Assembly (NCBI GenBank): GCA_007117455.1
Contig: SKGM01000023.1
Span: 1-51,067, forward strand
DNA length: 51,067 nucleotides
Reading direction: 5' to 3'
Source: Candidatus Methanomethylophilaceae archaeon
Lineage (GTDB): Archaea; Thermoplasmatota; Thermoplasmata; Methanomassiliicoccales; Methanomethylophilaceae
The translations under genes and the position numbers were made by a program. Below the pieces are notes generated by a model. The model did not search any database. It was not told where the DNA came from and saw nothing but the letters and a program-made list of their open reading frames with translations. Numbering within the stretch: position 1 is the first letter of the stretch; every line of letters starts with the position of its first letter. Shown here in pieces: positions 6,933-43,184 of this stretch.

Positions 6933-6933
6933 A

Positions 6934-8190: not shown

Positions 8191-8607
8191 TCACGCACCC
8201 TCCTTGATGGGGTTGGGGCCCAGACCCTTGATGTCGTCTATGAACTCCGTCATGGTCTTCTGGAACTTCTCCCCCTCGGAAGCGGAGACCCATTCCAGCT
8301 TCAACCTCTTGGGGTCGAAACCGTACTCCTCCAGCACGAAGCGGAGAAGGGCCATCCTCCTCCTGGCGCGGTAGTTGCCGCCGATGTAGTGGCAGTCCGC
8401 GGGGTGGCAGCCCAGCACTATCACGCCATCCGCTCCTTTTGCGAGAGAGCGGAGGATGTGCTCAGGGTCTACCCTTGCGGAGCACATCGTGCGGATGATG
8501 CGGAAGTTCGTTGGCATCTGCAGCCTGGCGACACCGGCGCCGTCAGCACCGGCGTAAGAGCACCAGTTGCAGCAGAAGGCTATGATTTTCGGATCGAATT
8601 CGCTCAT
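8191..8607 (-). CDS. mvhD: methyl-viologen-reducing hydrogenase delta subunit MvhD
   Basis: IAFCCNWCSYAGAD ... RVDP ... GADGVIVLGCHPADCHY motifs. ATG at 8607 with GGAGGA about 10 nt upstream. The ORF track starts at GTG 8616. Confidence 0.9.
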   Translation of the reverse strand: MSEFDPKIIAFCCNWCSYAGADGAGVARLQMPTNFRIIRTMCSARVDPEHILRSLAKGADGVIVLGCHPADCHYIGGNYRARRRMALLRFVLEEYGFDPKRLKLEWVSASEGEKFQKTMTEFIDDIKGLGPNPIKEGA

Positions 8608-8612
8608 GGATA

Positions 8613-12008: not shown

Positions 12009-12719
12009 GTGGAGCCGATGATCAGCAGTCCTTTCCTCATTGCTGTATCCGTGACCGCCTTGGTTATGATCCTGGCCTTGGTCCTAGGGAGGAGGCCTCC
12101 AGAGGAGGTCTCGACCATGGGCCCACAGTCCTCCGAGGTGGAGGTGGAAGGGGCAAGACAAGGCCCTCTGAGCATCCGCACACCCAAAGAGAGGTCCGTC
12201 CAATGTCGTATATGCATGGGAAGGATCAAGCTGGGGCAGGGTTATGCGGTATGCCCGTGTGGACAGGACTTCCATCGAACCTGCGTGGAGAGGACGGGTT
12301 ACTGCCCATACTGTAAAAAGGAATATTCCCGTCAGGAGTTCAAACGACGATATAACATACCAGAGGACACGAATATAACCCTGAGACGTTGTCCGGTTTG
12401 TGGGGATTTCATTCCTCGTGAGGCACGGATATGCGACTGCGGTGCGGTTTTCCTAGGGGCCGATGGATCATTCTCATGCCCCTCTTGCAAGGTCGAGGTG
12501 GCCGGGGGCGACCTAAGGTGCGGGGATTGCGGGGTGAGGTTCAAAGAGTACAATGCCATCCATTGCAAACACTGCGGACTATTGATTCCAGAGGGCGAGA
12601 ACGTCTGCGAATGCGGAACGCTCCTGGATGACAACTGTCCGGACTGCGGATGGAGGCTTGGCAAGGATGATGAACGTTGTCCCATCTGCGGCCTGGTCTT
12701 TGAGTTCGTGAGGGACTGA
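12009..12719 (+). CDS. membrane-anchored RING-like (C4HC3-type) plus four zinc-ribbon protein
   Basis: 236 aa. N-terminal hydrophobic helix (residues ~8-26). C66-x2-C-x12-C-x-C-x4-H-x2-C-x6-C-x2-C with an FH..C signature. Then four CxxC-x(9-13)-CxC/CxxC ribbons. GTG start at 12009, alternative ATG at 12018. Confidence 0.7.
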   Translation: MEPMISSPFLIAVSVTALVMILALVLGRRPPEEVSTMGPQSSEVEVEGARQGPLSIRTPKERSVQCRICMGRIKLGQGYAVCPCGQDFHRTCVERTGYCPYCKKEYSRQEFKRRYNIPEDTNITLRRCPVCGDFIPREARICDCGAVFLGADGSFSCPSCKVEVAGGDLRCGDCGVRFKEYNAIHCKHCGLLIPEGENVCECGTLLDDNCPDCGWRLGKDDERCPICGLVFEFVRD

Positions 12720-13013: not shown

Positions 13014-13114
13014 TTCAGGCCTATGCTGGCACCACTTATCGGCTGACAGGTTCCAGGTAAATTGATATATATGTGCTTTCAATAACAAGGAGAGAATCGA
13101 GAAGAGGAATTTTT

Positions 13115-13828
13115 ATGCAACCAGGACAGATGGCTTATGATAGAGGAATCACGGTTTTCTCCCCTGACGGTAGGCTTTTCCAGGTAGAGTATGCCCGGGA
13201 GGCGGTGAAAAGGGGGACCACCACGATCGGTCTGAAGTACAAGGACGGAGTCATCCTGATCGTGGACAAGCGGATTTCCAGCAGGCTCATGGAGCCTAAA
13301 TCAATCGAGAAGATCTTCCATATCGACGAGCACGTGGGATGCGCCACCTCCGGACTGGTGGCGGACGCCCGTATTCTGGTCGACCAGGCCAGGCACCTCG
13401 CCCAGGTCCACAAGGTGACCTACGACGAGAAGATAGGTGTCGAGGGGCTTGTTAAACGCATATGCGATTACAAGCAGAACTTCACCCAGTACGGTGGACT
13501 CCGCCCCTTCGGGACCGCTCTGCTCGTCGCTGGTGTGGATGAGATGGGTTGTCATCTCTATGAGACCGACCCCAGCGGCGCCCTTGTCTCCTACAAGGCA
13601 GGCAGCATTGGCTCTGGAAGGACCGCCGTCAACGAGGTCTTCGAGGCCGATTACCAGGAGGGCATGAAGTACGATGACGCCCTCCAACTCGGACTGAAGG
13701 CCCTTGCCTCCGCAACCGAGGAGGGACTCAAAGCACAGGCCCTGGAGGTCGGAGTGGTCAAGAAGGGTCAGGATTTCCAGAAGATCTCCGAGAAGGAGCT
13801 GGAGAAGTTCATCAAGAAGCTGGAGTAA
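13115..13828 (+). CDS. psmA: proteasome subunit alpha
   Basis: MQPGQMAYDRGITVFSPDGRLFQVEYA N-terminus. I chose the ATG at 13115 inside ORF 13073-13828. Confidence 0.95.
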   Translation: MQPGQMAYDRGITVFSPDGRLFQVEYAREAVKRGTTTIGLKYKDGVILIVDKRISSRLMEPKSIEKIFHIDEHVGCATSGLVADARILVDQARHLAQVHKVTYDEKIGVEGLVKRICDYKQNFTQYGGLRPFGTALLVAGVDEMGCHLYETDPSGALVSYKAGSIGSGRTAVNEVFEADYQEGMKYDDALQLGLKALASATEEGLKAQALEVGVVKKGQDFQKISEKELEKFIKKLE

Positions 13829-13844
13829 GGCCACGGTGGTCGAC

Positions 13845-14537
13845 ATGGTCAGTTTGGAGGACGCGATCGTAGCCAGACTCGAATCCCACGGGGAGACGTT
13901 CGAGATACTCATCGACCCAGACGTCGCAAAGGATGTCAGGGATGGTAAGGACGTCGAGCTCGAGGACCGGATGGTTGTCGATGAGGTCTTCAATGACGCC
14001 CGGAAAGGGACCCGCCCCACCGAGGAGAAGATATTGGAGGTGTTCGGAACCGACGAGTTGGCCGAGATCGCCCGTATCATCATACTCAAGGGCGAGATCC
14101 AACTCACCACCGAGCAGAGGCGGGAGATCCTTGAGTCCAAGAGGAAGAGGATAGTAGCCGAGATAGCCCGCAACGCCATCAACCCGCAGACCAACTCCCC
14201 CCACCCGCCTGCCCGCATCGAACTGGCTTTGGAGGAGGCGCGTTTCCACGCCGACCCCTTCAAACCATTGGACCAGCAGATCAAGAGGGCCATGGACCTC
14301 CTGAGGCCGATGATCCCCATCAAGTTCGCCCGCAGCCGGGTCGCCGTCCGCCTCAAGGGCGATGATTACGGCCGGTGTTATGATGACATCCGCTCCATGG
14401 GGGACATCGTGGAGGAGGAATGGCAGGCTGATGGCCATTGGATCGGCATCATCGACATACCTGCCGGGGTGAAGGACGAACTGACCTCCAGGATCAAGGG
14501 CAAGACCAAAGGAGAAGGGGAGATAAAACCCCTATGA
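13845..14537 (+). CDS. sdo1: ribosome maturation protein Sdo1 (SBDS family)
   Basis: 230 aa starting at the ATG at 13845 (MVSLEDAIVARLESHGETFEILIDPD...). Conserved superoperon position. Confidence 0.88.
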   Translation: MVSLEDAIVARLESHGETFEILIDPDVAKDVRDGKDVELEDRMVVDEVFNDARKGTRPTEEKILEVFGTDELAEIARIIILKGEIQLTTEQRREILESKRKRIVAEIARNAINPQTNSPHPPARIELALEEARFHADPFKPLDQQIKRAMDLLRPMIPIKFARSRVAVRLKGDDYGRCYDDIRSMGDIVEEEWQADGHWIGIIDIPAGVKDELTSRIKGKTKGEGEIKPL

Positions 14538-14572
14538 CCTTTTCTCAAAAATTACATTCGTGAAGTGATACT

Positions 14573-15280
14573 ATGGAAAATATGAACGCTAGGCCCAAGA
14601 GGGAGGTCGTTGTACCGGGTGACCTCCTCGATGACAAGGGGCTTCGCCCGGGAAGCGGCACCTATGTGCTGGACGGTAAGGTTTACTCCTCCTTGTTGGG
14701 CGTGAAGAACATCAGATCGAACTACGTCAACGTCATCCCCTTATCAGGCAGATACCTGCCCCAGACCGCCGACACGGTGGTGGGGAAGATCATAGACATC
14801 GGCCCATCCAACTGGCTGGTGGATATAAACGCCCCTTATCCGGCGCCTCTGCATGTCAACGAGGTGCCCTGGAGGGTGGAGTTCGGCGATACCGCCCGAT
14901 TCCTGAGGGTCGGGGACGTCATCATGGCGAAGATCCTGATGATGGATGAGACCAACAAGATACAGGTCACAATGAACGATTCGGGCATGCGCAAGCTGCA
15001 GGGCGGCCATGTCATTGAGATATCCTATTCCAAGGTCCCCCGGGTCATCGGAAAGGGTGGATCCATGATACAGATGATCAAGAGCATGACCGACTGCCGC
15101 ATATTCGTGGGACAGAACGGCGTGATCTGGATCGAGGGCGAGTTGGAGAACGTCCTGGTGGCCGCCAAGGCCATTCAGATGATAGATGAGGAGGCCCAGT
15201 CCTCCAATCTCACAGAGAGGGTCAAGGAGTACATGGAGAAGGCCCTCCCCGCCTCAGAGCAGGCGGACATCCAGGAGTGA
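14573..15280 (+). CDS. rrp4: exosome complex RNA-binding protein Rrp4 (S1 + KH)
   Basis: 235 aa. VVPGD...GTYV.DGKVYSS N-terminal region, an S1 domain and a KH domain (VIGKGGSMI). Confidence 0.92.
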
Positions 15281-15285
15281 TTGTA

Positions 15286-16026
15286 ATGGATTCAGACATC
15301 GTAATGGTAGATGATAAAGGCAAGAGGCTCGACGGCAGGACCGCTGACGAGCTGCGCCCTATGAAGATCGAGGCAGGCGTGCTGTCAAATGCGGACGGTT
15401 CCGCATACCTCGAGATAGGTAAGAACAAGGTCCTCGCGGCTGTTTACGGCCCGCGTGAGTGCCACCCCCGTCACCTGCAGAACCCCACAAGGGCCATCGT
15501 GCAGTGCAAGTACAACATGCAGTCCTACTCGGTGGGCGACCGTAAGAGACCTGGACCCGACCGCCGTTCCGTGGAGATATCCAAGATAATCTCCGAGGCT
15601 CTGGAGGCCGTCATTCAGGTCGAGCTCTTCCCCCGGGCATCGATAGATGTGTACATCGAGATCCTGCAGGCCAACGCTGGTACCCGCTGCGCAGGCCTGA
15701 CGGCAGCATCGGTGGCCCTGGCTGACGCCGGCATACCTATGCGCGACCTCGTTCCCTCAGTTGCCGTGGGCAAGGCCAACGGGCATCTGCTCCTCGACCT
15801 GAACAAGGAGGAGGACAACTACGGTGAAGCGGATCTGCCTCTGGCCATAGTGCCCAAGACCAATGAGGTGGTCCTACTCCAGATGGACGGACATATGACC
15901 CGTGAGGAGTTCGGTACCGCCATGGAGATGGGCGTGAAGGCCTGTCATGAGATCTATGAGATGCAGAAGGACGCCCTCCGCAGGAGGTATTCCACGGAGG
16001 CGGATGAACAGGAGGTGGAGGAATGA
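15286..16026 (+). CDS. rrp41: exosome complex exonuclease Rrp41 (RNase PH)
   Basis: R.DGR...ELRP motif and RNase PH fold. ATG at 15286; the ORF track has an alternative GTG at 15277 that overlaps the rrp4 stop. Confidence 0.93.
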
Positions 16027-25312: not shown

Positions 25313-26602
25313 GTGGATGCGGAGACGCTCCTGTTCCTGGCCTACATGGTATTGATCGGTTCTGCCATAGGCAGCTTCAGTGGCCTCATACCGGGCATAC
25401 ATGTCAACACATTGGCGGTGTTGATGCTGGCCTCTTATCCTCTCCTGGCGGTGCTGTTATCAGGGCTCATCTGCCCCTCCCTGCTACCGTTGATGGTGGC
25501 CGCGGCGGTGGTGTCGGCGGCGGTGGTCCATTCATTCATGGACTTCGTACCGTCTGTCTTCCTGGGCTCACCGGGGGAGGAGGACGTTCTGAGCGTGCTG
25601 CCGGGGCACAGGATGCTCATGGATGGGAGAGGTGCGGAGGCGGTGGCCTGCTCCGCCCAGGGGAGTATGGTAGGGGCAATGGCCGCTGTGGCCCTCGCCC
25701 TCCCCGTGCACTTGGTGATGGAATCAGGCGGATGGTCGGTGCTCCAGACCCATGTCCCCTTCATCCTACCGGTCTGCCTCTTCCTGATGGTGATGTCCGA
25801 AAGAGGAAGGGGTGCCAGGAGGAAGAGGGCCTGGGCCTGCCTGCTCTGCCTGGGATCATCCTTGCTGGGATTGGTGACCATGTTCGGAAGCCTCCCGGCA
25901 ACCGCAGGCATGGAGGGCATGATGCTCCCTCTGCTGGCAGGCCTCTTCGGAATGCCGGCACTCCTCATCTCCCTGGGAGGAGGGGGTGTGCCGGTGCAGA
26001 CCGGGGCGGCGAGGGCTTCCATCGACAGCGGTCCGGCGCTACGGGGATTGTTGGCCGGCCTGGCGGTGGGATGGCTCCCGGGCATAACCGCAACCGCCGG
26101 GACGGTGGTGGCCTCGATCAGCTCTCCGGAGAGGACGCCTGAGAGGTTCATAGCCATGGTGTCATCGGTGGGGACCGCGGCAACCGTCTTCGCCCTGGTG
26201 ACCCTTTCTGTGTCCGGGAGGGGGAGGACCGGGACGATGCTGGTGGTCATTGATGTGATGGGCGGGGACCTGGGAGTCCAGGGTTTCGCGGTTCTTCTGA
26301 TGGCCGTCTGCGCATCGGCGGCCATAGCCTACATCCTGACGGTGAGAGCGGGGGCCCTGTTCGCCCGGATACTCCAGGGAAGGGACCTTTCGCGCATCAA
26401 CGTGGCGATAGCCGCGTTCCTATGCCTGCTCACCTTGGTAATGTGCGGGCCGGGCGGACTCCTGATGTTGACGGCGGCGACGTTCCTCGGCCTGCTGCCT
26501 TCAGCGGTGGGCGTCGGGAGGGTGCATCTGACCTCATCCCTCCTGGTGCCAGTCATAATATCGTACTCTGGATACCAGTGGATGCTTTCCGGCATCCTAT
26601 GA
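25313..26602 (+). CDS. TctA-family / DUF112 integral membrane protein
   Basis: 429 aa, highly hydrophobic, with a GLIPGIHVNTLAVLM-type motif near the N-terminus. GTG start. I recognise the family only by pattern. Confidence 0.55.
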   Translation: MDAETLLFLAYMVLIGSAIGSFSGLIPGIHVNTLAVLMLASYPLLAVLLSGLICPSLLPLMVAAAVVSAAVVHSFMDFVPSVFLGSPGEEDVLSVLPGHRMLMDGRGAEAVACSAQGSMVGAMAAVALALPVHLVMESGGWSVLQTHVPFILPVCLFLMVMSERGRGARRKRAWACLLCLGSSLLGLVTMFGSLPATAGMEGMMLPLLAGLFGMPALLISLGGGGVPVQTGAARASIDSGPALRGLLAGLAVGWLPGITATAGTVVASISSPERTPERFIAMVSSVGTAATVFALVTLSVSGRGRTGTMLVVIDVMGGDLGVQGFAVLLMAVCASAAIAYILTVRAGALFARILQGRDLSRINVAIAAFLCLLTLVMCGPGGLLMLTAATFLGLLPSAVGVGRVHLTSSLLVPVIISYSGYQWMLSGIL

Positions 26603-28736
26603 AATCCCCGATTCGGACCCTGTCCCAACCGAAGGGGATCAGTATCTCCTCCGCCGACCTGACCAGCATGTCCGTGTACCTCCCGCGGTCATAGACCCCG
26701 TCCCAGAACTCCGGGATGGCCACCTTTCCTGCGGCGTTCTTTGAAGATGAGTCGCGCAGGATGTAGGCGAGGGATTGGCCGGGTTGGGGTTCCTGGCCGT
26801 ATGCTGCCATAAGTTCCGCTGCCGCCCGGCCGTCGTTGAACTGCCGGTACTCCCCGATGCTCCGAGAGGCCCTTCTCACAAGGGTCAGATGTTCGGCCGA
26901 CACCTCTCCATCCCTGATACGGTCCGTCCAGTGGCGGAGGTTCTCCAGGACGACAGGGACCATCGAATCCAGGTCCTCACGGCTGACCGCCTGCGACATG
27001 GACTGCAGAGACCTTGTCTGGAAATCCCTGACACACCCCACGCAGTCCCTCTTCCTCGCTGCTATGCCCCTTATCTTAAGTTCCCCGTCCTCGAAAAGCC
27101 CGAAATAACGGTTAAGGGCGCCAGCGCCGTTATGGAGGTTGGGGAGGAATGCTATCCAGAGGTAACGCCCCTCCTCCTCAAGAGGTATCCCGTGCATCCG
27201 ATGAACCTCCTGGGCGAGGGCATCCGCATCACCGCCCCCCTGCATCCATAGGGAGTCCACTATACCATGTATGACCCGGAAACCCATGGACTCGGCCATC
27301 TCAGCGGTGCTGAGCATTATCTCCCGGCCATAGGCGGTTATCGCCTCGTGGCATTCTATGCGACCGAAACGGGCGTTCCGGTAACCGGTGTAGCCGAAGC
27401 ATGTGACCAGTATCCACTTCAGAAGTTTTGACCTCTGGCCATGTATCTCGGCTCGGGCAGGGTCCCTGCGGGCCATGGCTTTGAAGGCCCGGCGGCGCTG
27501 CACCACTGGACCCAACACCGCGGGCAGAAGCCCTTCCTTCAGACCGCATATCCGATAACCTAATCCAGGTACGGTACTGGCGGACTGGGGGCAGCAACCG
27601 CATTCCAAGGTCTCCGGGGATATGTTGTAGCGGGCTATGATGGATGGATACATGGACGAGAAATCCATCTCCAGCACGTCCTCGTGTATTCCCGGCCTCG
27701 GTTGGTGGATGAAGCCGCCACGGTCGCAGGCCATGAGACGGGACACGCTCTTGAAGTCCTCAGGCAGGTTCTTCTTCCAACGGAGTAGATGTCCGGTCCG
27801 TAGGGCCCGGTCCGACTGCATGGCACTTATGGCTGTTCCCGGGGATAGCCTTGCAAGGTCCTGCAACGGGAGCCCGCTCAGACGGGATAGTTCCACCAGC
27901 CCGGCGATGCCTCCCTCCGAGTACATGAAGGATGCGGTGTCCAGATGAATCCGGCCCTTGAGTTTCAAAGAGGGCGGTTTGTACACCGTCCTACCATAGC
28001 TGTGATAGCTCTTGCCCGTTCCGGAACGGACCCCTTCCTCCCTGCCGAGGTTTAGGTCCACGCCCAAGGCCCGGGAGCGTTCCAGGACATGGGCGGTGCG
28101 ACCCTTGTCCCCTCTTTTGACCATTATGATGTCAGGATCGCGCTCCTCCACCACCTCGCCCAGGGATCTGAGCATCCCCTCCTCATCCCCCTCGAGGGGG
28201 ATCCCGTCCACATCGATTCCAACCAGCTCGTCATCTGGACGGGGATCGAACGGACGCGATATACGGGGGTTCAACTCCATTGTGCGCAAAGGCGGGAGGG
28301 GATAGTTCAGACGCAGCGGGGAGTCCAGACTCCTTAGTCCATCATCGATCTCCACCAGGCCGAAGGGGAAGAGTCGCGATGCTGTGAGAAATCGCTGGGA
28401 GGGAGTGAGGTCCACATTGTAGAGCGAGTAGTCCCGGTAGGATCCCCAACGGTCCACCGTCCTTGCGAGGCGGTTCATCTGCTGGAACCCGTCCACACTA
28501 ACCTTGAGCACGTCCTCTTCCGGACCCCCTAGCACAGTCCTTGCCCTGTCCATTCTCGGGAATGCGCCGTATGCCCGGACATCCCCCTCCAAAGAATCCA
28601 AATCCTTTCCTGAGACATAGAAGGAGGGCCTCAGCGGCCTCTGAAGACGGACTGTCCCGTCAGCTGTGCGGACCCATGTGACAACCCCTTGATCGTCGTC
28701 TGATGCATGGCAGTCGATTATCCACCCTCTCATCAC
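26553..28736 (-). CDS. family-B DNA polymerase paralogue with degenerate exonuclease and altered polymerase motifs
   Basis: 727 aa. Motif A DFSSMYPSII is intact. Motif B reads KWILVTCFGYTGY, motif C reads HGIVDS (canonical YGDTDS), and the KxY region reads NRY. The ExoI/II/III acidic residues are not recognisable. Confidence 0.85.
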   Translation of the reverse strand: MMRGWIIDCHASDDDQGVVTWVRTADGTVRLQRPLRPSFYVSGKDLDSLEGDVRAYGAFPRMDRARTVLGGPEEDVLKVSVDGFQQMNRLARTVDRWGSYRDYSLYNVDLTPSQRFLTASRLFPFGLVEIDDGLRSLDSPLRLNYPLPPLRTMELNPRISRPFDPRPDDELVGIDVDGIPLEGDEEGMLRSLGEVVEERDPDIIMVKRGDKGRTAHVLERSRALGVDLNLGREEGVRSGTGKSYHSYGRTVYKPPSLKLKGRIHLDTASFMYSEGGIAGLVELSRLSGLPLQDLARLSPGTAISAMQSDRALRTGHLLRWKKNLPEDFKSVSRLMACDRGGFIHQPRPGIHEDVLEMDFSSMYPSIIARYNISPETLECGCCPQSASTVPGLGYRICGLKEGLLPAVLGPVVQRRRAFKAMARRDPARAEIHGQRSKLLKWILVTCFGYTGYRNARFGRIECHEAITAYGREIMLSTAEMAESMGFRVIHGIVDSLWMQGGGDADALAQEVHRMHGIPLEEEGRYLWIAFLPNLHNGAGALNRYFGLFEDGELKIRGIAARKRDCVGCVRDFQTRSLQSMSQAVSREDLDSMVPVVLENLRHWTDRIRDGEVSAEHLTLVRRASRSIGEYRQFNDGRAAAELMAAYGQEPQPGQSLAYILRDSSSKNAAGKVAIPEFWDGVYDRGRYTDMLVRSAEEILIPFGWDRVRIGDFIGCRKASTGIQSTIL

Positions 28737-28972
28737 TCACCCCGCCTGAGCCTGCGGATCTCCTTCTCATGCTCCAAGAGCATGGAGAGAATCATCCCCT
28801 CCACAGGATCGGGGGAGTCGCAGTTGCTTCCAGCTGCGGCATGGTCGCGCACATGTTCCATGAGCAGGTCGAATGCTTCTCGGTCCTCGGGACGCAACGC
28901 CCTGCGGAAACCTTTCCACTCATCGATTATCCTCTCTGACGCCCGGCGGTATGTGGGGGCGGTCCTCCCCAT
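28733..28972 (-). CDS. hypothetical small helical protein, translationally coupled to the PolB paralogue
   Basis: 79 aa. ATGA overlap with the polB start; its own ATG directly abuts the upstream gene's stop. I recognise no family. Confidence 0.55.
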   Translation of the reverse strand: MGRTAPTYRRASERIIDEWKGFRRALRPEDREAFDLLMEHVRDHAAAGSNCDSPDPVEGMILSMLLEHEKEIRRLRRGE

Positions 28973-29551
28973 TCAGGCACCTCCGGGTTGCTTGACTGAC
29001 AGTCCATGGGCGGAACCCCTGACCCTAAGCACCCTCGGACAGGTTAGAGGGCAGCCAGATACCAATACCGGTGACTCTTCGGACCTTGAGATGTCCTGCA
29101 GCACGTCCAAGGCCCGGGAGAGGAGTTCCCTCGACTCCCTGCGGTCGACATCGGGATCTTGGAACAGCTCCCCCAGAGAACTCACTATCACCAGGGAGGG
29201 CGACTCCTCCACCGTCCGGTCCCGGAGCCGGCCCTCTATTATGGCGCTCATCTGATAAGCGGTGAAGGCACGCGCCAGGATTATCCGGTCCAAGGCCCCC
29301 CTGGGACTCTGCCTCCCCGACCTGAGAAGCCTCAGAAGGAGCAGGGGGTCTATGACGTTACCCCCGTCCACCCATATCACCTTCCCTTCACCCTTCAGTT
29401 TCTCAGCACAGAATGAGTGGGTGACGAGAGAGACCGCCTCCCTTTCCCCTTCCAATGACACTACCTCCCCCGGCCACAGGGAGGGGAGTCGCTCCGCTAT
29501 TCCGGTCAACATCTCGATGCGGGTCTGTCGTGAGGGTGCTTTGGCTCTCAT
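28973..29551 (-). CDS. RadB/RecA-fold protein lacking Walker A and Walker B residues
   Basis: 192 aa from the ATG at 29551 (alternative ATG at 29512). Collinear by eye with archaeal RadB, but it has GEREAVSL in place of G-x4-GKT and LVIVSS in place of hhhhD. The longer track ORF (to 29914) overlaps a plausible plus-strand membrane gene, and its extra N-terminus is Pro/Arg/Ser-rich. Confidence 0.6.
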   Translation of the reverse strand: MRAKAPSRQTRIEMLTGIAERLPSLWPGEVVSLEGEREAVSLVTHSFCAEKLKGEGKVIWVDGGNVIDPLLLLRLLRSGRQSPRGALDRIILARAFTAYQMSAIIEGRLRDRTVEESPSLVIVSSLGELFQDPDVDRRESRELLSRALDVLQDISRSEESPVLVSGCPLTCPRVLRVRGSAHGLSVKQPGGA

Positions 29552-29579: not shown

Positions 29580-29587
29580 GTATTATA
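29580..29587 (-). promoter_or_regulatory. candidate TATA box for the RadB-like/PolB operon
   Basis: The minus strand reads TATAATAC about 30 nt upstream of the ATG at 29551. Confidence 0.35.
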
Positions 29588-29625
29588 CCGGTAACGAGGG
29601 AGGGAGTTCCGAAAGTGGGCGGCAG

Positions 29626-29661: not shown

Positions 29662-30114
29662 ATGCATGTGGAAAAGTCTCCTTTGGCTGGAGTGAGGGCT
29701 TCGATCCCCTCGTTGGAGAAATGGCTGGGAATGGCGTTCTCGATAGTGATGTCCGGAGTGTTCTCAAGGATGATAAGGGACCCTGCCGGAGAACGCTACC
29801 ATGATACCCTGGCGATAATGGGGACATCGGAGTTCGCTTTGGTGATGTTGGCCATAACCTTCGTGGTGATCCTCGTCTACTACTACGGAGACCGTCTGGG
29901 GATATGGGTCCCACAGGCCCATCAGTACTATGCTACCATAATCATCTGCCTGGTCGCCCTGTACATGGCGGGATACGTGGCGGTCGACAACCCCCTGGTC
30001 GCAGGCAGCGTGCTGCTGTTCTCAGGCGGCCTACTGACGGTATTGGCGGTAAAGAAGGATTCCTGGGGAATAGCAGATGTGGGAATCCTCAGAAGGCTCA
30101 TCGGCCCTGGATGA
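29662..30114 (+). CDS. hypothetical membrane protein (about 4 TM helices)
   Basis: 150 aa with four hydrophobic stretches. No recognisable family. Confidence 0.55.
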   Translation: MHVEKSPLAGVRASIPSLEKWLGMAFSIVMSGVFSRMIRDPAGERYHDTLAIMGTSEFALVMLAITFVVILVYYYGDRLGIWVPQAHQYYATIIICLVALYMAGYVAVDNPLVAGSVLLFSGGLLTVLAVKKDSWGIADVGILRRLIGPG

Positions 30115-31201
30115 CTTCCGGGAGGTCCTCCATGGAGTATGAGCGCTTCGGTGTACCCGGTACGGGAGCCCCCCCCTCCTCACGGCGGACGACCTCCGCC
30201 AGGACCGGGCGCGGACGGTATATCCTCCACTTGGCCACTATGTCGTCTATGAGGTCCCTTTCGTAGAGGGCGAAGTATATCACCGTCGTTGTGGCCATTA
30301 TGATTATGTTGAAGAGTATGGACATCCCTATGAATCCACCGACCTCCGCCAGGCTAAGCCTCCTCACCGCACCTATGGTGTAAAGGGCGATGGGGATTAT
30401 GGGGATCGCTATCTTCTTCAGGGTCGTCACGGCACCCTTGTAGAGTCTGAGATCGTGATAGGGGCCCTTAATCCTCACATCGAGGGAACGGAATATGGAC
30501 CAGGGGAGTACCAGGAAAGGAAGGTACAAGGTCAGCAGGAACATCACCAGCAGTATGTACTCCAGAGAGTAGGCTGTCAGAAGTGAGGGGTTGAGGCTTA
30601 TGTATATCCATAGGAACACGCCGATGAGGAATCCCATGCCCATGGTCCGAAGGGTGTCCTCCAAAGGTATGTTCTCGCGGCGCATGTTGTGGTCCATCAT
30701 CAGGTCGTTGGTATTGATGTCATCTGGTATGTTGAAGAAGAACACCAGGATCTTGTCCTTGAGCTCCAGATCCTTGCGCAGACTCATCCCTTCGATCCTC
30801 GCCAATGTACGATAGAAAAGCTTCCTCTGCAGTGTGACGATGACCGCCACCACGCCGAACCCCCCCAGGACCGCGTACACCAGGAAAAGGAGTATTATGG
30901 TCTCTACCCCGTAAGAGTACAGTAAGGCCACCAGGGCCAGGAGTATCAGGGTGTAGTACCAACGGAACCTGCCCGCAAATGAGACCAGACCGACGATGAC
31001 CAATGAGAAGGAGAAGACCGGGATGGCCTCTATGATGGAGTCCACGACACCCATTGCCACCACCGCAACGGTTGCCACGGTGCAGGCCAATAGGGCTAGC
31101 AGGAAAAGTCGCAGCAGGGCTATGTCATAATTGCTGCTGAGGTCCAGCTTCCGTCGTCTTCTCTTACTGGCCAACTTCTCCAATCTCATTATGCCGGGCA
31201 T
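30098..31201 (-). CDS. hypothetical polytopic membrane protein
   Basis: 367 aa. Basic N-terminus (KRRRRK), about 4 N-terminal TM helices, a polar central loop and about 4-5 C-terminal TM helices. No family recognised. Confidence 0.6.
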   Translation of the reverse strand: MPGIMRLEKLASKRRRRKLDLSSNYDIALLRLFLLALLACTVATVAVVAMGVVDSIIEAIPVFSFSLVIVGLVSFAGRFRWYYTLILLALVALLYSYGVETIILLFLVYAVLGGFGVVAVIVTLQRKLFYRTLARIEGMSLRKDLELKDKILVFFFNIPDDINTNDLMMDHNMRRENIPLEDTLRTMGMGFLIGVFLWIYISLNPSLLTAYSLEYILLVMFLLTLYLPFLVLPWSIFRSLDVRIKGPYHDLRLYKGAVTTLKKIAIPIIPIALYTIGAVRRLSLAEVGGFIGMSILFNIIIMATTTVIYFALYERDLIDDIVAKWRIYRPRPVLAEVVRREEGGAPVPGTPKRSYSMEDLPEVIQGR

Positions 31202-31232: not shown

Positions 31233-31565
31233 TCATTCGACCCATGCTTCCAGTTCTACATCGGCCTTGTCGCCCCGGTATACGCCCAACATGATTACGG
31301 CTGTGCCCTTATCCTCGAAAGGGAAGGGCCCTAGTGTTCCAGACCTCATCCCCTCCTCGAATTTGAGGACCGCCCCTCCGGCATCTGACAGGGCTACATC
31401 GACGGGTGAATCGGACTCCACCCTGACCAGAAGCGATCTGCCTTTCTTGACCTGTATAGGGATCGACCTAACATTGTCATATCCGCCGGGGATGCTGGGG
31501 TCGAAATCACCTATCCTCAGACGCTGCACCGGCATGACCTGCGATCTTCTCCGTAACAGGGCCAT
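31233..31565 (-). CDS. hypothetical small soluble protein
   Basis: 110 aa with beta-strand-like alternating pattern. It lies between the flavoprotein and the membrane protein on the same strand. Confidence 0.5.
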   Translation of the reverse strand: MALLRRRSQVMPVQRLRIGDFDPSIPGGYDNVRSIPIQVKKGRSLLVRVESDSPVDVALSDAGGAVLKFEEGMRSGTLGPFPFEDKGTAVIMLGVYRGDKADVELEAWVE

Positions 31566-33407: not shown

Positions 33408-34052
33408 ATGATGAGCAAAGAGGATATATTGAACGGTTTGAGCGAGGCGGTGGTATTGGGCAAACCTGACCAATCCAAGATGTTCGCTCAGAGGGCGATT
33501 GACGAGAATGTCAATCCTCTGGAGGCCATCAACAACGGCCTGGTGAAGGGGATGTCCATGGTGGGTGACAGGTATGCTGCAAGAGAGGTTTACCTCCCTC
33601 AGGTCCTGATGTCCGCCAACACCATGTACGCAGGACTGGACTTGCTTCTGCCGATGATACCTAGCGAGGATCTATCGGACAAGAAGAGAGTTATCATCGG
33701 TGTTGTCGAGGGCGATGTCCACGACATAGGCAAGAACATTGTCAAGACCATGATGACCGCCGGCGGTTTCGAGGTCAATGACCTTGGAAAGGACGTGCCC
33801 ACAGAGACATTCATAAGCACCGCAGAGTCCTATAAGACCGATGTGGTCGCGATGAGCACGCTGATGACCCCGACCATGGACGGCATGAAGGATGTCGTGG
33901 ACGGTTTGGTGGAGAGCGGTTACCGCGCCAACACCAAGGTCGTCATCGGAGGACCGCCGACATCCCCGGACTTCGCTGAGGAGATCAAAGCGGACCACCG
34001 GGATGCCAACGCCCAAGATTCGGTGGCATGGCTCAAGGAGGCGCTGTTTTGA
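33408..34052 (+). CDS. methyltransferase cognate corrinoid protein (MtaC/MtbC/MtsB family)
   Basis: 214 aa. B12-binding motifs DVHDIGKNIV (DxHxxG), MSTLMT (SxL) and VVIGGPP. Strong AGGAGG Shine-Dalgarno upstream. Confidence 0.9.
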   Translation: MMSKEDILNGLSEAVVLGKPDQSKMFAQRAIDENVNPLEAINNGLVKGMSMVGDRYAAREVYLPQVLMSANTMYAGLDLLLPMIPSEDLSDKKRVIIGVVEGDVHDIGKNIVKTMMTAGGFEVNDLGKDVPTETFISTAESYKTDVVAMSTLMTPTMDGMKDVVDGLVESGYRANTKVVIGGPPTSPDFAEEIKADHRDANAQDSVAWLKEALF

Positions 34053-35134
34053 ACCACATCGAGAGGGCTATGGCGGCACTCACCGACGGAGAGGCTGACC
34101 GCCTTACGACGTACCCGATTGCCTGTGGCGTCAACCGCAAGCTCCTCGGTGACAACGTTACCTACGCCGAATGGTGCCGGGACCCCAAACTTTTCGCGGA
34201 CGCCTTCGTCGCCGGACAGAAGTACTTCGACTTCGATTTCGCAATAGGCCTTATGGACCTTTCGGTCATGGCTGGCGACCTCGGAGCGCACGTCCGGATG
34301 GATGATGAGAACACACCTTTTGTGGACAAATACATCGTCAACGATCTGGAGGACTACGAGAAGCTCGAGGTTCCAGATATAAAGGCTGGTCGGACTGGCG
34401 TCCTTATCGAGGGTACCCGTCTGTTCACCGAGAAGCTCAAGGACGAGGTCATCTGCGCCGCATTCCTGGAGGGGCCACTGCTGGCCCTCACCCAGTCCGC
34501 GGGAGCGGAGAGGGTGTTCATGGACATGTTCACCAACCCCTCAGCCGTACACGCTGGGTTGGAAACCATGACCGAGTTCGACGTGCAGATGGTGGAAGCA
34601 TTCAGTGAGACGGGCGCACCTGGGCTGGTCTGGGACTACCTGTGGGGCAACTACTCCTGTCTGGGAGACAAGGAGTATGATGAGTTTGAGGGTGGATCCA
34701 AGTACGCCGGTAAGCTGAACAAGCTGGCGGTGGACCTTGGATTCGCCAACTGCGTCCACAACTGTGCTGACCTTCCTCATCTGGACACCCAGATCAAGAA
34801 GTTCAAGCCCGCCATCTACAGCATGGCCTACTACCCTCTGATACCTGACTCGCCCAGCGCGGGTGAGACCATAGAGAAGGGCTATGCAGATGAATGTCTC
34901 TTGGCTGGGAACATCGACCCCCAGTTCTTCATCCGCGCTAGCGAGGAGAAGATATCCAAGGTCACAGCGGACCTTTGCCAAGAGGTCAAGACCGCACTCT
35001 GCAAGAAGGGACTTAACTCCCGCTACTGCATTGCCAGCGGTTGTGAGGTCCCACCGGACCGCGTCACAAAGCTGGAGAACATCAAGGCGGTTGTGGACGT
35101 TACCAAGGAAGAGGGCGTCCTCGGGGACTGCTGA
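34028..35134 (+). CDS. URO-D family methylcobamide methyltransferase (MtaA/MtbA/MtsA-like)
   Basis: 368 aa. Zinc ligand motif VHNCAD (H-x-C) and a downstream SGCEV cysteine, as in MtaA-type enzymes. The start is uncertain (ATG 34028, TTG 34049 or ATG 34070). Confidence 0.85.
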   Translation: MAQGGAVLNHIERAMAALTDGEADRLTTYPIACGVNRKLLGDNVTYAEWCRDPKLFADAFVAGQKYFDFDFAIGLMDLSVMAGDLGAHVRMDDENTPFVDKYIVNDLEDYEKLEVPDIKAGRTGVLIEGTRLFTEKLKDEVICAAFLEGPLLALTQSAGAERVFMDMFTNPSAVHAGLETMTEFDVQMVEAFSETGAPGLVWDYLWGNYSCLGDKEYDEFEGGSKYAGKLNKLAVDLGFANCVHNCADLPHLDTQIKKFKPAIYSMAYYPLIPDSPSAGETIEKGYADECLLAGNIDPQFFIRASEEKISKVTADLCQEVKTALCKKGLNSRYCIASGCEVPPDRVTKLENIKAVVDVTKEEGVLGDC

Positions 35135-38680: not shown

Positions 38681-39300
38681 GGATCGCGGTCATCGCCTGT
38701 GACATATTCAAAGAAGAAGTAGAGGCACTGGTGGAGGGGGATGAGGATGTCGTCCACCTCGAGTTCCTCGAGTTCGGGCTGCACATCGAACCAGAGAGGC
38801 TAAGGGATGCGGTTGTGGAGAAGGCCAATGCCGTGGCTGACAAGGTCGACGCCATCATGCTCGGGTACTGTTACTGCCAGAGCCTCATGGGAGTCCTGAA
38901 GGACATAAAGGCCCCGGCGGAGATGGTCCACACCGACGACTGCATCGGAGTCTTCCTCACCCCTTCAGGGTATGCGGATGAGAGGCGGAAATGTGCAGGC
39001 ACCTGGTACAATTCTCCGGGATGGACCAACCTGGGCATCGAAGGTTCGATAAAGGAGTTGCGACTGGACACCGTTGCGGACGAGATAGACCCATTGGACC
39101 TGTTGCGCATGATGTTCCAGAGTTACTCAAGATGCTTGTTCATCGACACGGGAGTGGGGGACCTGGATAACCTGAAGGTCAAGTCGCAGGAGTTCGCAGA
39201 CATCATGGGACTCGAACACGAGGAGACGGTGGGCGGTTACGGGCTCCTTGCCGATGCGTTGCAAAGGACCAAGGACCTGGTGAAGAGCAGGGACTCCTAG
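38677..39300 (+). CDS. DUF1638 family protein
   Basis: 207 aa. MRIAVIACDIF...LEFGLH..PE.L...GYCYC...DDCIG pattern of DUF1638, a family typically found next to corrinoid methyltransferase genes. ATGA overlap with the upstream gene. TAG stop. Confidence 0.75.
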   Translation: MRIAVIACDIFKEEVEALVEGDEDVVHLEFLEFGLHIEPERLRDAVVEKANAVADKVDAIMLGYCYCQSLMGVLKDIKAPAEMVHTDDCIGVFLTPSGYADERRKCAGTWYNSPGWTNLGIEGSIKELRLDTVADEIDPLDLLRMMFQSYSRCLFIDTGVGDLDNLKVKSQEFADIMGLEHEETVGGYGLLADALQRTKDLVKSRDS

Positions 39301-41219
39301 GATCTGAGCCTATAGTGGGTATTGGGCACCATCAGCTCATAGCGGGTGCCCTCGCCGTGTTTACCGTTCTCGATGATGTTTATCCTGGTCACGTCCAATA
39401 TCTCTTTGACAAGGTACATGCCATCCGCCCCCAGGGAGGATGCCACGTCAAAGATGCTTTCCTTGATGTTGTCTGGCACCCCTTTACCATCATCCTCGTA
39501 CACCACCCGCATCCTTCCATCGGTTATGTTGAAACCGACCTTGATACTCTCTACGTTGTCATCATTCATGCTGAGAGCAATGATTTTCTCGAATGCTTTC
39601 GGCAGCTCGGGGTCAGCGAGTATCTCCAGGTTTCCTGTGTTGACCTCTAACATCTCCTCAGGGAGGGATAGGGTCAGGGAGGCCTGTTTGACAACATCGG
39701 AGATGCTCTGCCATTCCGGGTTCATGATTCCGACGTTCCGGAAATCCCGGGCGAATCGCATCCTCTCCTGGATACGGTTGGATGAGTCTATGATGCGGTC
39801 AAGATGATCCAGTAGTGCGGGCTCTTCCGCCATGGCTTTGAGGAAATTGACGTATCCCTTGATTATCTGAACCTGATTGGAGACCTCGAGGAACGTCATG
39901 CGCTCGACCACGTTCAGATGGAACGATGCCCTCTCGAGTTTCTCGAGTGAGCTCTCTATGTCGCTCATGTCCTCCAAGGTTATTATCGCCCCTTTGACCT
40001 CGTCCTTGCCGTTGATACGCGGTTGTATGGACACCTGGAGCGATACTGTCAGGTCGGTGGATTTGAAGCGTAGCTTATGGTGGGCGGCGACGCGGCTCCT
40101 GATTGACTCCATCACCGCCGAATACAGCTGGACGGTGAAGTCGCTCTTGTACTCAATGAGTCCTTTACCCACATGACCATCGTCAGATAGATGGTCCAGG
40201 AGTTTACGGGCCTTCAGGTTGCATTCCACTATCGCCCCTTGGCAGTCCACCACCATGATACCGACCGGTGCGAACTGGAGCATCTCCTCATATCTTCTCT
40301 CGGTCTCATACCTGGCCTCTCCGGACATCCTGCCCATGTATATCGAGGCCATGCCATCCATGAGGAGATTGAACTGGTTCAGGTCGGTGTTGTCATAATG
40401 ATCGGCCTTGTTGGCCACTCCGGCGGTACCGATGACCTTTCCTTCGTGCATAAGCGGGATCATCAGCAACCTCTTGAGACCGACGTGACCCTTGGGTATC
40501 CCTTTGATCAGGGGGTTGGGGGAGGCGTAGTCGTTTACGATTATGGCCCTCTTCTGGCGAACAGGTTCACCCCATATCCCGACCTTGTCCATCGGGTATT
40601 CGATGGGCTTCTCCTCGATACGGCACTCCCTCATGCCGGCCTGGGACCAGGAGTACATGGTCAACATATCCCTCTTCTCATCATAAAGAGCGAAATAGCC
40701 CATGCCGCTACGGGTCAGCTTCACGCTCTCTTCCAACACGAAATGCGCAACTTCCGAGAATCCGTAACGATGCATCTTGGCCAATCTTACCAGTGCCTTC
40801 AGACGGCGTTCGTTCAATGACCGCTCCTCATCTATACGGCGCTTCTCCACGGCAAGGACTATCTTGTCGGCCAGATCCGTGAAGAGTTCCCGCGGCGGGC
40901 GTTCCTTTATCATGTAGAAGTCCACGCCGAGGTTCATCGCCTCAACAGCGACCTCCTCGGAACCATTTCCCACCAGAGGTATGAAGGGGAAGTTGGTGCT
41001 CCTTCTAAGAAGACTACGGAACAGCGCCAGTCCATCAACGCCCGATGGAGGATTGTGGTCTGAGACGATGATGTCAGGGTTGAACCTCTCTATCATCTTG
41101 TCGACCTCCTCCGGGTCGAGACAGGGTACTACCCTGATGTCCCGATTGATCCTCGTTAGGAACGTCACGGCCATGTCCGAGAACGTCTGATCCTTCTCGA
41201 CTAGAAGCACCCTATACAT
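39297..41219 (-). CDS. REC-GAF-PAS protein with degenerate histidine-kinase core (apparent pseudokinase)
   Basis: 640 aa, paralogous and collinear with the next gene. Receiver Asp present (IIVSDHNPP). GAF present (GIWGEPVRQKRAIIVNDY). At the H-box position it has FLEVSNQ where the paralogue has RHDVMNQ. N-box Asn is replaced (ALSMNDD versus ENTLRHG). The G2 box is weakened. Confidence 0.8.
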   Translation of the reverse strand: MYRVLLVEKDQTFSDMAVTFLTRINRDIRVVPCLDPEEVDKMIERFNPDIIVSDHNPPSGVDGLALFRSLLRRSTNFPFIPLVGNGSEEVAVEAMNLGVDFYMIKERPPRELFTDLADKIVLAVEKRRIDEERSLNERRLKALVRLAKMHRYGFSEVAHFVLEESVKLTRSGMGYFALYDEKRDMLTMYSWSQAGMRECRIEEKPIEYPMDKVGIWGEPVRQKRAIIVNDYASPNPLIKGIPKGHVGLKRLLMIPLMHEGKVIGTAGVANKADHYDNTDLNQFNLLMDGMASIYMGRMSGEARYETERRYEEMLQFAPVGIMVVDCQGAIVECNLKARKLLDHLSDDGHVGKGLIEYKSDFTVQLYSAVMESIRSRVAAHHKLRFKSTDLTVSLQVSIQPRINGKDEVKGAIITLEDMSDIESSLEKLERASFHLNVVERMTFLEVSNQVQIIKGYVNFLKAMAEEPALLDHLDRIIDSSNRIQERMRFARDFRNVGIMNPEWQSISDVVKQASLTLSLPEEMLEVNTGNLEILADPELPKAFEKIIALSMNDDNVESIKVGFNITDGRMRVVYEDDGKGVPDNIKESIFDVASSLGADGMYLVKEILDVTRINIIENGKHGEGTRYELMVPNTHYRLRS

Positions 41220-41273: not shown

Positions 41274-43184
41274 TTAAGTCTGCCTGTGTATTCCCGGGGG
41301 GAATGATAACTTGAAACAAACCCCTTCGCCCTCTATGCCGGTCTCCTCGATGCGGACATCCGTCATCGAGAGTATCTCCCGAACCAGGAACATCCCAAGT
41401 CCGGTGTTCCTCCCCACCCCCTTTTGGAATATGTTCTGCTTCTGATGCAGGGGGACCCCTTTTCCATCATCCCGGTATATTATGGTCAATGAACCGTCCT
41501 CCTCAAGCTCACCGCCGATCCAAACCTGACTCACATCGCCTCCATGCCGCAGGGTGTTCTCGAAGAGATTGTAGAATACCTTGTTGAGGGCCGAGTCTGC
41601 CAGTACCTCTAAACCATCCAGGTCCACCTGGAGGTCTATGCCATGACTGTCAGATATTCCCGCGCGGACCTCATTGTGCAGGTTCAACCATAACGGCCGG
41701 TGTACCCCAAGGGACTGATAGGTTCGGGAGAAGTTCATCTGATCGGATATGATATCGAGTATGTGCTCCATACGGGACAAAAGTCTCTCTGACATCCCCG
41801 GATCTTGGACCTCCTTCATGATGCCAATATAACCATAGAGTGCCTGGAGCTGGTTCATCACGTCATGGCGGGTTATCTGATCCACGGTCTTTAGCTGATG
41901 GGCGGTCCTCTCCAGGGTCTTGTTGGCTTCGTACTCTGAACTTATATCATCCATGACGAGGATGGCTCCATTGAATCTGTTAGATTTATCCAGCAACGGA
42001 GAGGCGGTGCTGCGGATGTGGATATGTTCATCCCCTCGCATATGATGGAGTATCCTTTTGGACCCTGCAGGAAGCTCTCGGCATTCCTTGTACAGCTCCA
42101 TTATACCATTCGTGAGTTCATCGTCACAGACAAGGGCCGCGTTCCTTTGAATCCCGTTCCCCACCATGTTCATGAACAGGTCATTGGCGTCGACCAGTAC
42201 ACCTTCAGCATCCAGTAGGGCGACGGCCACGGGTATTTTCCTCATTATGGCCTCATACCTCTTCTCCGCCTCATGGAGCACCACATCACGGTTCGCCACA
42301 TCATAGAGGTCGCCCATGGAGTTCATGAGTAGTTGTAGATGGCGCAGGTCCCTCTCAGTGTAATCCTCATCTTTGTTGGCCACACCGCATGTGGCAACGA
42401 TCTTGCCTCTGTTGAATATGGGAATGGCCATCACTCGGTGGAGAGGTACGTGCCCTTCTGGAACCCCTTTTCTATACTGGCCATCTTTGGCATAATCGTT
42501 CACCATTATCGGCCTTCCTTGTCTGACAGGTTCGCCCCAGAGCCCAGTCTCATCCAGATTGTATAGTATAGGACGGTTCGAGGTACGACACTCCTTCATG
42601 CCCCCTTGTGACCAAGCGAACATGTTCAATGTCCTACCTTCAAGGTCAACCGTTGCGATGTAGCCAATTGTACTGGAGCTTATCTCCACCATCCTCTCCA
42701 ATACGAAGTGGGCCATCTCATGGAAGGGGGACTGACGCTTATCAGCAATCTGGACCATGGTCTGGAGCCGATAATCCGCCATCCTGGCCTCCCGGCGATC
42801 CCTCACCATTCTCGCAAGGCGCTCGATCTGACTTCCCAACAATAGGTGCAACTTTTCATGGTCAAGGTCCCTATTTGCATGACAATCGACACCCTGGCAG
42901 AGGGCCTCGGTCGAGAGGGTTCCATCATCGGATGGGGTCAGTATGATGACTGGAAAATCAGGATCCTGCTCCCGTACCTTTTTTATGACCTCTAGGGCAT
43001 CGGAAGCAGGAGGGTCGTGGTCAATCAGAAGGATGTCGGCTTTTGCTTTCATAAGGTCGGCCAAGGTACCAACATGGTCTATCAGCAGGGTCCCTATGTC
43101 GTTGTAAGATGAAGCCAAGGCTGTTTCCAGTCTCGAGAGCAGAACAGGATCGTTCCCTGCCAGGGCAACTCTGACCTTCCCCAT
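41274..43184 (-). CDS. REC-like-GAF-PAS sensor histidine kinase
   Basis: 636 aa. H-box ITRHDVMNQLQ, N-box FYNLFENTLRHG, G1 DDGKGV, G2 GLGMFLV. GAF with GLWGEPVRQGRPIMVNDY. The receiver-like N-terminus keeps its Asp (LLIDHDPP). Confidence 0.85.
   Translation of the reverse strand: MGKVRVALAGNDPVLLSRLETALASSYNDIGTLLIDHVGTLADLMKAKADILLIDHDPPASDALEVIKKVREQDPDFPVIILTPSDDGTLSTEALCQGVDCHANRDLDHEKLHLLLGSQIERLARMVRDRREARMADYRLQTMVQIADKRQSPFHEMAHFVLERMVEISSSTIGYIATVDLEGRTLNMFAWSQGGMKECRTSNRPILYNLDETGLWGEPVRQGRPIMVNDYAKDGQYRKGVPEGHVPLHRVMAIPIFNRGKIVATCGVANKDEDYTERDLRHLQLLMNSMGDLYDVANRDVVLHEAEKRYEAIMRKIPVAVALLDAEGVLVDANDLFMNMVGNGIQRNAALVCDDELTNGIMELYKECRELPAGSKRILHHMRGDEHIHIRSTASPLLDKSNRFNGAILVMDDISSEYEANKTLERTAHQLKTVDQITRHDVMNQLQALYGYIGIMKEVQDPGMSERLLSRMEHILDIISDQMNFSRTYQSLGVHRPLWLNLHNEVRAGISDSHGIDLQVDLDGLEVLADSALNKVFYNLFENTLRHGGDVSQVWIGGELEEDGSLTIIYRDDGKGVPLHQKQNIFQKGVGRNTGLGMFLVREILSMTDVRIEETGIEGEGVCFKLSFPPGIHRQT

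Follow-up and report, generated by a model that had tools for sequence, protein, structure and literature searches.

A very probable archaeal PolB2 'mutasome' operon on the chromosome of a Methanomassiliicoccales-type archaeon

Introduction

The closest described relatives of the operon considered here, a three-gene unit on the minus strand of a 51,067-nucleotide (nt) stretch of DNA from a Candidatus Methanomethylophilaceae archaeon (contig SKGM01000023.1, positions 1 to 51,067; hereafter the window), are the PolB2 operons of archaea. These were described by Makarova, Krupovic, and Koonin (2014; PMC4104785) as a combination of PolB2, which was predicted to be inactivated, a helical protein of about 90 residues (arCOG07300), and inactivated RadA paralogues (arCOG07763, arCOG04294, and arCOG08101). 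More recently, Timinskas, Timinskas, and Venclovas (2025; PMC11791011) renamed the two partners PPB2 and iRadA, and designated the gene order iRadA-PPB2-PolB2 as class '1a'. The genes of such operons are described as lying side by side on one strand with few interruptions, and their PolB2 as having lost the first Asp of the motif C DxD but not the second, with a partly decayed exonuclease domain that has no active site. Among the features they defined are an MGRT arm in PPB2 (with Arg3 and Arg9), a D(K/R) motif in PolB2 following a loop that mimics the FxxA oligomerization motif of RadA/Rad51, and, in a fraction of the operons only, clamp-binding motifs at the C-terminus of iRadA or PolB2. AlphaFold models of 1:1:3 heteropentamers were presented for 40 operons, a Methanomassiliicoccus one included, and the PolB2 table in that study lists class 1a operons from bacteria, haloarchaea, and Thermoplasmata.

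Dpo2 is the only member of the family for which there are both biochemistry and genetics, and these depict an active, damage-inducible extender polymerase of translesion synthesis (TLS). As purified from Sulfolobus/Saccharolobus islandicus and S. solfataricus, Dpo2 is a robust polymerase without exonuclease activity, which inserts poorly opposite lesions but efficiently extends mismatched or lesion-paired termini (PMC8764526). In vivo, no other polymerase is damage-inducible, and targeted mutagenesis depends on Dpo2 (PMC7390963). An architectural analogy has also been drawn with the Pol V mutasome of Escherichia coli (UmuD'2C-RecA), where an oligomerization-like motif joins the TLS polymerase to a RecA/Rad51-family protein and a small subunit inserts its N-terminal arm near the active site, and with eukaryotic Pol zeta, which is also an extender of the B family that has no exonuclease (PMC11791011). 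The resemblance to Pol V is a functional one only, as its catalytic subunit belongs to the Y family, its RecA is active, and its subunits are not homologous to PPB2.

Here, we find that the three proteins encoded by the window operon are members of the PolB2, PPB2, and iRadA families and carry their diagnostic sequence features. Very probably, this is an archaeal PolB2 'mutasome' operon of class 1a carried on the chromosome of a Methanomassiliicoccales-type archaeon, and its polymerase would be an active, damage-induced TLS extender. A preliminary description of this DNA had left open the possibility that the linkage was undescribed, although it was published in 2013-2014 and structurally modelled in 2025. 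Both operon and linkage are thus already known, and the locus is a typical representative of a conserved family already in the literature, to which it adds one more Methanomassiliicoccales example.

Operon layout and gene boundaries

The operon is made up of the following three open reading frames (ORFs).

28973-29551, minus strand: iRadA, 192 residues counted from the ATG, an inactivated RadA/Rad51 ATPase-core paralogue
28733-28972, minus strand: PPB2 (arCOG07300 / PF26485 DUF8156), 79 residues
26553-28733, minus strand: PolB2, 726 residues from the ATG at 28733, or 727 if the GTG at 28736 is used

The coordinates that the preliminary description gave for three abutting or overlapping minus-strand ORFs are borne out by the ORF listing and the sequence, and its view of them as one coupled unit is supported. 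At the first junction, as had been noted, the stop codon of iRadA (TGA, 28975-28973) directly adjoins the PPB2 ATG at 28972, leaving a 0-nt gap. The second junction, which had been given as an ATGA overlap at 28733-28736, is really GTGA or TGATG. On the minus strand it reads GAG TGA TGA, and a GTG start of PolB2 (28736) makes a 4-nt overlap with the PPB2 stop codon, whereas an ATG start (28733) makes one of 1 nt. Translation from the ATG at 28733 gives PolB2 an N-terminal MRGW, in line with the MxGW of all its homologues, which makes this ATG the likely start. The iRadA, PPB2, and PolB2 genes are translationally coupled.

The iRadA reading frame remains open upstream as far as 29914. Nonetheless, a start at the ATG at 29551, which would be near-leaderless, is favoured, because a conserved divergent gene begins at 29662, because the resulting 110-nt intergenic region is equal in length to that of a close relative (locus L081), and because of the 65-nt spacing to the promoter element described below. 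At the other end of the operon, the 3' end of PolB2 overlaps a convergent TctA-family transporter gene (25313-26602, plus strand) by 50 nt (26553-26602), and this overlap is kept in relatives, with a length of 50 nt in L081 and of 31 nt in both L082 and L083.

The PolB2 polymerase

In a Pfam scan, PolB2 of the window matches DNA_pol_B (E-value 2.6e-24), with no detection of the DNA_pol_B_exo1 domain, and its best NCBIfam match is NF004416 (460 bits). The motif registers were taken from a residue-level HMMER alignment with PolB structures from Thermococcales, and the positions of main concern are these.

27755-27744, minus strand: FxxA-like motif FKSV, residues 327-330
27725-27720, minus strand: D(K/R) motif DR, residues 337-338, directly before GG
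27665-27663, minus strand: motif A Asp357
27263-27255, minus strand: motif C I491-V-D493

Motif A reads DFSSMYPSII, as compared to DFRSLYPSII in Thermococcales, with Asp357 and the steric-gate Tyr362 both kept. In motif C, HGIVDSLW aligns with YIDTDGLY, and so DTD has become IVD, with the first Asp lost and Asp493 kept. The metals of B-family polymerases are bound by two carboxylates, one from the Asp of motif A and one from the second Asp of motif C. The window PolB2 keeps both (Asp357 and Asp493). Motif B reads K439-W-I-L-V-T-C-F-G where Thermococcales have K-I-L-A-N-S-Y-Y-G; here, the Lys and Gly are kept, and Asn, Ser, and Tyr are replaced by Val, Thr, and Phe, respectively. In the KxY region, the Thermococcales KKKY pairs with NRYF.

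As judged from the alignment, the exonuclease site of PolB2 is absent and the domain is partly decayed. The profile places ExoI at SPLRL (about residues 139-143), though in an uncertain register, and ExoII reads RGDKGR instead of NGDNFD. The ExoIII segment fails to align, and a hand count suggests that about 50 residues are missing there. These alignments agree with the preliminary description in its recognition of the polymerase as a PolB2-type paralogue, changed in its motifs and devoid of an exonuclease site, in its reading of motif A as DFSSMYPSII and of motif C as GIVDS in place of GDTDS, and in the loss of the N-x3-FD signature of ExoII. Two of its details called for correction. Motif B is indeed eroded by the loss of its Asn, Ser, and Tyr, but the proposed register (TCFGYTGY) is off by one, and the Lys and Gly are retained. 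Similarly, ExoI does lack its acidic site, with D-x-E found in neither register, but the position assigned to it (TMEL) is not the one given by the profile.

When compared with 12 relatives, Asp357, Lys439, Asp493 (within HGIVDSLW), and Asp337 are invariant, as is Tyr362, while Arg338 is invariant or nearly so. The PolB2 of Methanomassiliicoccus luminyensis, a cultured relative, shows 47% identity to that of the window. Related loci were further surveyed with one genome per species of GTDB (80 loci; hidden Markov model searches on six-frame ORFs). An F-K-x-A...DRGG arrangement, in the form FK(T/D/S)A, occurs at 61 of these loci, and HG[IV][IV]DS at 76 of them. The HGIVDSLW of the window recurs without change in the published PolB2 table, which lists it at least 128 times as an 'IVD' motif (PMC11791011). 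The PolB2 motifs VTCFGYTGYRNARFGRIECHE...HGI(V/I)DSLW and DRGG are the same here as in the class 1a operons.

The window PolB2 and S. islandicus Dpo2 resemble one another in that both have the first motif C Asp replaced (IID in Dpo2, IVD here), both lack the exonuclease, and both are linked to PPB2 (arCOG07300) and iRadA (radA-like). The gene order is different, being PPB2-PolB2-iRadA (class 3a) for Sulfolobales in the published classification, as opposed to iRadA-PPB2-PolB2 in the window. Going by the published numbering, motif C lies at residues 401-403 in Dpo2 and at 491-493 here, which implies a shorter Dpo2. As a separate observation, the PolB2 C-termini (26553-26620, minus strand) of the window clade and its sister clade have in common only a short Qxx[I/M] (GIQSTIL, GFQSVIS, HQCRIA, and RQVAIGSNPV).

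The inactivated RadA paralogue iRadA

Taken alone, the window iRadA is a marginal match to Rad51, with 21.8 bits against a gathering score of 22, and it falls far below the equivalog cut-offs of RadB and RadA. The two nucleotide-binding motifs are located as follows.

29449-29429, minus strand: degenerate Walker A, G35-S41
29182-29180, minus strand: Ser124 at the Walker B Asp position

In the family-profile alignment, the Walker A sequence GEFGSGKT of RadA pairs with G-E-R-E-A-V-(gap)-S, which shows that the P-loop Lys is deleted, and the Walker B sequence LLIVDS pairs with LVIVSS, in which the Asp is replaced by Ser. The AlphaFold model of iRadA has a predicted local distance difference test score of 88.8 and a predicted template modelling score of 0.86, and its top Foldseek matches are the cores of RadA, RAD51, and DMC1 (E-value about 1e-11, TM score about 0.75). 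A RecA/Rad51 fold devoid of its ATPase residues, as originally proposed, is thereby borne out by profile alignment, structural model, and Foldseek alike, with both the Walker A Lys and the Walker B Asp absent. There is no N-terminal helical domain in iRadA, and the family profile covers the RadA core only. In lacking both a P-loop and this domain, the protein is like its class 1a counterparts.

The earlier designation of this protein as RadB-like did not hold. The iRadA family profile is closer to the ATPase core of Pyrococcus furiosus RadA (E-value 1.3e-18) than to RadB (1.3e-9). Membership in RadB (TIGR02237) was rejected, since the score of 18.4 bits is below the cut-off of 172.4 and the Walker A GxxxxGKT is not intact.

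Most members of the iRadA family are 230-260 residues long and end in a tail resembling a PCNA motif, either NQxTLDEF-like or QTSFxSF-like. The window iRadA and its nearest relatives (181-202 residues) are without an internal segment of about 15 residues and without this C-terminal tail. Accordingly, the C-terminal truncation that had been noticed in the window protein is real, but it is specific to the window lineage and not shared by the family at large. The loss of the PCNA-motif-like tail in this lineage seems to be new and, if true, a tail-less iRadA would imply a complex that is clamp-independent or differently tethered.

The small protein PPB2

The 79-residue protein, which had at first been assigned to no recognized family, is PPB2 (arCOG07300), with the Pfam annotation PF26485 (DUF8156) found on 22 of 22 database homologues. 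DUF6809 was also considered for it, but this was a sub-threshold Pfam match only, and the family is the newer PF26485. PPB2 starts with MGRTAPTYR, and the MGRT arm (28972-28961, minus strand), with Arg3 and Arg9, is the same as that of the class 1a operons. In the alignment, Gly2, Arg3, and Arg9 are nearly invariant, Thr occupies position 4 in 14 of the 15 sequences covering the N-terminus, and LLEHEK is invariant. The structure model consists of a free N-terminal arm (residues 1-7) and three helices (8-25, 28-47, and 56-78), and gave no significant structural match when compared against the PDB.

Conservation of the linkage and the chromosomal setting

Among the 80 surveyed loci, 65 were informative, having enough upstream DNA, and these are distributed as follows.

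Contiguous iRadA-PPB2-PolB2: 47/65 loci
PPB2 and PolB2 adjacent, with iRadA displaced or undetected: 10/65 loci
Other arrangement: 2/65 loci
Neither partner detected: 6/65 loci

With 47 of 65 loci contiguous, the linkage of the three genes that had been put forward as fixed is indeed fixed across genomes. The lineages with related operons are the Methanomassiliicoccales, other Thermoplasmata, Methanoperedens, ANME-1/2, and other Halobacteriota. Gene order, the three families, and the tight coupling are all as in the published class 1a operons (PMC11791011, PMC4104785).

Four close relatives have the same gene order. In the closest ones (54-67% PolB2 identity), there is full synteny, with a 4-nt PPB2/PolB2 overlap and a 1-2-nt gap between iRadA and PPB2. 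This synteny takes in an upstream flavin adenine dinucleotide (FAD) reductase, a 110-residue ORF, a membrane protein of about 365-367 residues, and a divergent 150-residue ORF, and downstream the convergent TctA gene, a phosphoribosyltransferase, and an adenine deaminase. In the window, the flanks of the operon are housekeeping genes, namely those for the TctA transporter, phosphoribosyltransferase, adenine deaminase, Trp/Tyr-tRNA synthetase, and FAD reductase. We also noticed that three genes directly upstream have no Pfam family, these being 29662-30114 (plus strand, 150 residues, divergent), 30098-31201 (minus strand, a 367-residue membrane protein), and 31233-31565 (minus strand, 110 residues), and that they keep their order and orientation in relatives at only 54-67% PolB2 identity.

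The promoter and its DDRE-like element

In S. islandicus, a DNA damage-response element (DDRE), 5'-ANTTTC-3' in the Sulfolobales with the S. islandicus consensus AATAGTTTCRGWDTACTCWS, is bound by Orc1-2 (PMC6061795). Upstream of the window operon, we located two promoter features.

29581-29588, minus strand: TATA-like box GTATAATA (TATAATA, 29587-29581), about 30 nt upstream of the ATG
29597-29620, minus strand: DDRE-like promoter element with core ACTTTC (29616-29611), extended site GCCCACTTTCGGAACTCCCTCCCT

The TATA-like box, which the preliminary description had already pointed out, is seen in the sequence, and the relatives, like most of the related operons, have a T/A-rich box at a matching position. 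In the intergenic alignment with four relatives, ACTTTCG is invariant about 22-23 nt upstream of this box. Moreover, 37 of the 47 contiguous operons have A[ACGT]TTTC in the sense orientation at the corresponding site, compared with an average of 5.9 and at most 13 for random windows taken from these loci in 2000 trials, and ACTTTC itself is the most enriched hexamer found de novo (28/47, with 1.5 expected). The distance from the element to the ATG is 65 nt in the window, identical in L081, and within 1 nt of this in several other operons.

A 24-nt position weight matrix (PWM) of the element, built without the window, gave 83 matches of at least 15 bits in 1.8 Mb of loci as compared to 3 in shuffled loci. 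By hand classification, 71 of the 83 belong to PolB2 operons, where they precede the leading gene by 40-90 nt; among these are operons with a lone PolB2 or with PPB2-PolB2. The best match in the window is the operon site, yet its 18.3 bits are just under the 95th percentile of the whole-window shuffle maxima (18.5 bits), and so the site is supported by position and conservation and not by score alone. The PWM scan brought up no further DDRE-like sites above background in the window.

In comparison with the Sulfolobales DDRE, the window reads ACTTTCGG at a site that precedes its TATA box, and several related operons read AATAGTTTCAC, a 9-mer identical to the Sulfolobus consensus. There are also differences, as the window element begins about 65 nt upstream of the ATG, some 22 nt before the TATA box, as opposed to -23 to -55 in Sulfolobus, and is followed by a C-rich extension, CACCTCCCC. 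A literature search for 'ANTTTC' in the context of DNA damage found Sulfolobales studies only and, with no description of it met in the searchable literature, the promoter element upstream of PolB2 operons seems to be new. From sequence conservation, it is possible, though somewhat less likely than not, that the element conserved in Thermoplasmatota, Methanoperedens, ANME, and other Halobacteriota (consensus ACTTTC-R-xx-C-R-CCTCCCC) is a damage-response operator, and that it reflects an ancient and widespread Orc1-2-type regulon with PolB2 as its core. If true, such a damage regulon would be archaea-wide and not a speciality of Sulfolobales. Being easily scanned, the element would allow DNA-damage regulons to be predicted in uncultured Euryarchaeota and would make pan-archaeal Orc1-2-type damage signalling directly testable.

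The same element was also seen to precede other genes that neighbour PolB2 operons. These encode an XPB helicase (XPB_DRD + ResIII; L071:1-975, minus strand), an RNase_T-family DEDD exonuclease (L051:~8740-9320, plus strand), a GyrI-like protein (L026:220-684, plus strand), and TnpB (L074:3669-4952, plus strand). There may thus be a small damage regulon, and IS200/IS605 elements may perhaps have captured the element.

Proposed mechanism and alternatives

We infer that a damage-inducible translesion 'extender' complex is the most likely mechanism for the window lineage. By analogy with Dpo2, PolB2 would be active without proofreading, with catalysis carried out by Asp357 (motif A) and Asp493 (motif C), and would mainly extend mismatched or lesion-paired primer ends during TLS. 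The published AlphaFold models predict that PolB2, iRadA, and PPB2 work as a 1:1:3 complex. Here, the FxxA-like loop of PolB2 (FKSV, then DR-GG) would dock on iRadA in the way that RadA subunits dock mutually, and the MGRT arm of one PPB2 subunit would insert between PolB2 and iRadA, near the DNA. The operon is probably induced by DNA damage through the ANTTTC-type site upstream of the TATA box.

Several points weigh against this mechanism. The functional statements draw on Sulfolobales enzymes, which are distant and smaller, or on in silico models. In PolB2, the loss of Asn, Ser, and Tyr from motif B together with the altered KxY could reduce polymerase activity, and the docking loop of the window (FKSV) differs from the usual FKTA by an Ala-to-Val replacement. 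Pattern searches, which did not use the authors' profile, likewise turned up no clamp-binding motif. The window iRadA, about 40-60 residues shorter than most members of its family, ends in GLSVKQPGGA with no Q/NxxLxxF-like clamp motif, and PolB2 has no canonical PCNA-interacting protein box, its C-terminal GIQSTIL containing only Qxx-I. Finally, no orc1/cdc6, SRAP, or DUF72 genes, which have been reported beside other PolB2 operons, were found among the window genes scanned near the operon.

The preliminary description had put forward another explanation, a purely structural module for DNA binding or scaffolding, made up of an adaptor together with a PolB paralogue and a RecA-fold protein that are both catalytically dead. 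The change of DTD to IVD, the loss of the motif B Asn, Ser, and Tyr, the altered KxY, and the missing exonuclease site all speak for such a module, as do the lost Walker A and B residues of iRadA and the inactivation predicted in the older literature (PMC4104785). Still, we regard it as unlikely. Dpo2, which has a like substitution (IID), is robustly active in vitro and is required for targeted mutagenesis in vivo (PMC8764526, PMC7390963). Moreover, the window PolB2 keeps Asp357, Asp493, and Lys439, and the invariance of these residues and of Tyr362 among relatives is unexpected for a pure scaffold. An 'eroded' motif C in PolB2 is not the mark of an inactive enzyme, and its partners, the small protein and the RadA-like one, have already been named and modelled.

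Less likely again is a role of the complex in replication initiation or origin regulation instead of lesion bypass, an idea raised in 2014 from a linkage to arORC2. While the published neighbourhoods are enriched for orc1/cdc6 genes and the promoter element resembles a site bound by an Orc1/Cdc6 paralogue, that paralogue in Sulfolobus, Orc1-2, is a damage-response transcription factor and not an initiator. The window genes scanned include no orc1/cdc6, and the genetics of Dpo2 favour damage tolerance.

Although Methanomassiliicoccales are known casposon hosts, it is extremely improbable that the polymerase is part of a casposon, or of a mobile element with a protein-primed PolB, and that its neighbours are cargo, because the housekeeping flanks are syntenic in relatives at only 54-67% PolB2 identity, and neither Cas1 nor an integrase is present among the genes scanned, though no explicit search for terminal repeats was made. 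The operon that would encode the extender complex is a vertically inherited chromosomal locus and not a mobile element.

Wider context of the window

Elsewhere in the window (5415-11612, minus strand, and 33408-35134, plus strand) are genes for large and small subunits of an NiFe-hydrogenase, a 999-residue HdrA-like flavoprotein, and a pair consisting of a corrinoid protein and a URO-D-type methyltransferase. The window context is that of a methyl-reducing methanogen chromosome, and it fits the Methanomassiliicoccales affiliation of the best protein matches. A tRNA-Ser was the only match in an Rfam search of the window. A 236-residue protein (12009-12719, plus strand) has a RING-finger-like domain (zf-RING_2 / Prok-RING_1) and a double zinc ribbon, and its gene adjoins those of the proteasome alpha-subunit and the exosome (13073-16026, and probably the next ORF to 16796). 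Lastly, two adjacent paralogues (39297-41219 and 41274-43184, both minus strand) encode receiver-GAF-PAS-histidine kinase hybrids of 640 and 636 residues, respectively.

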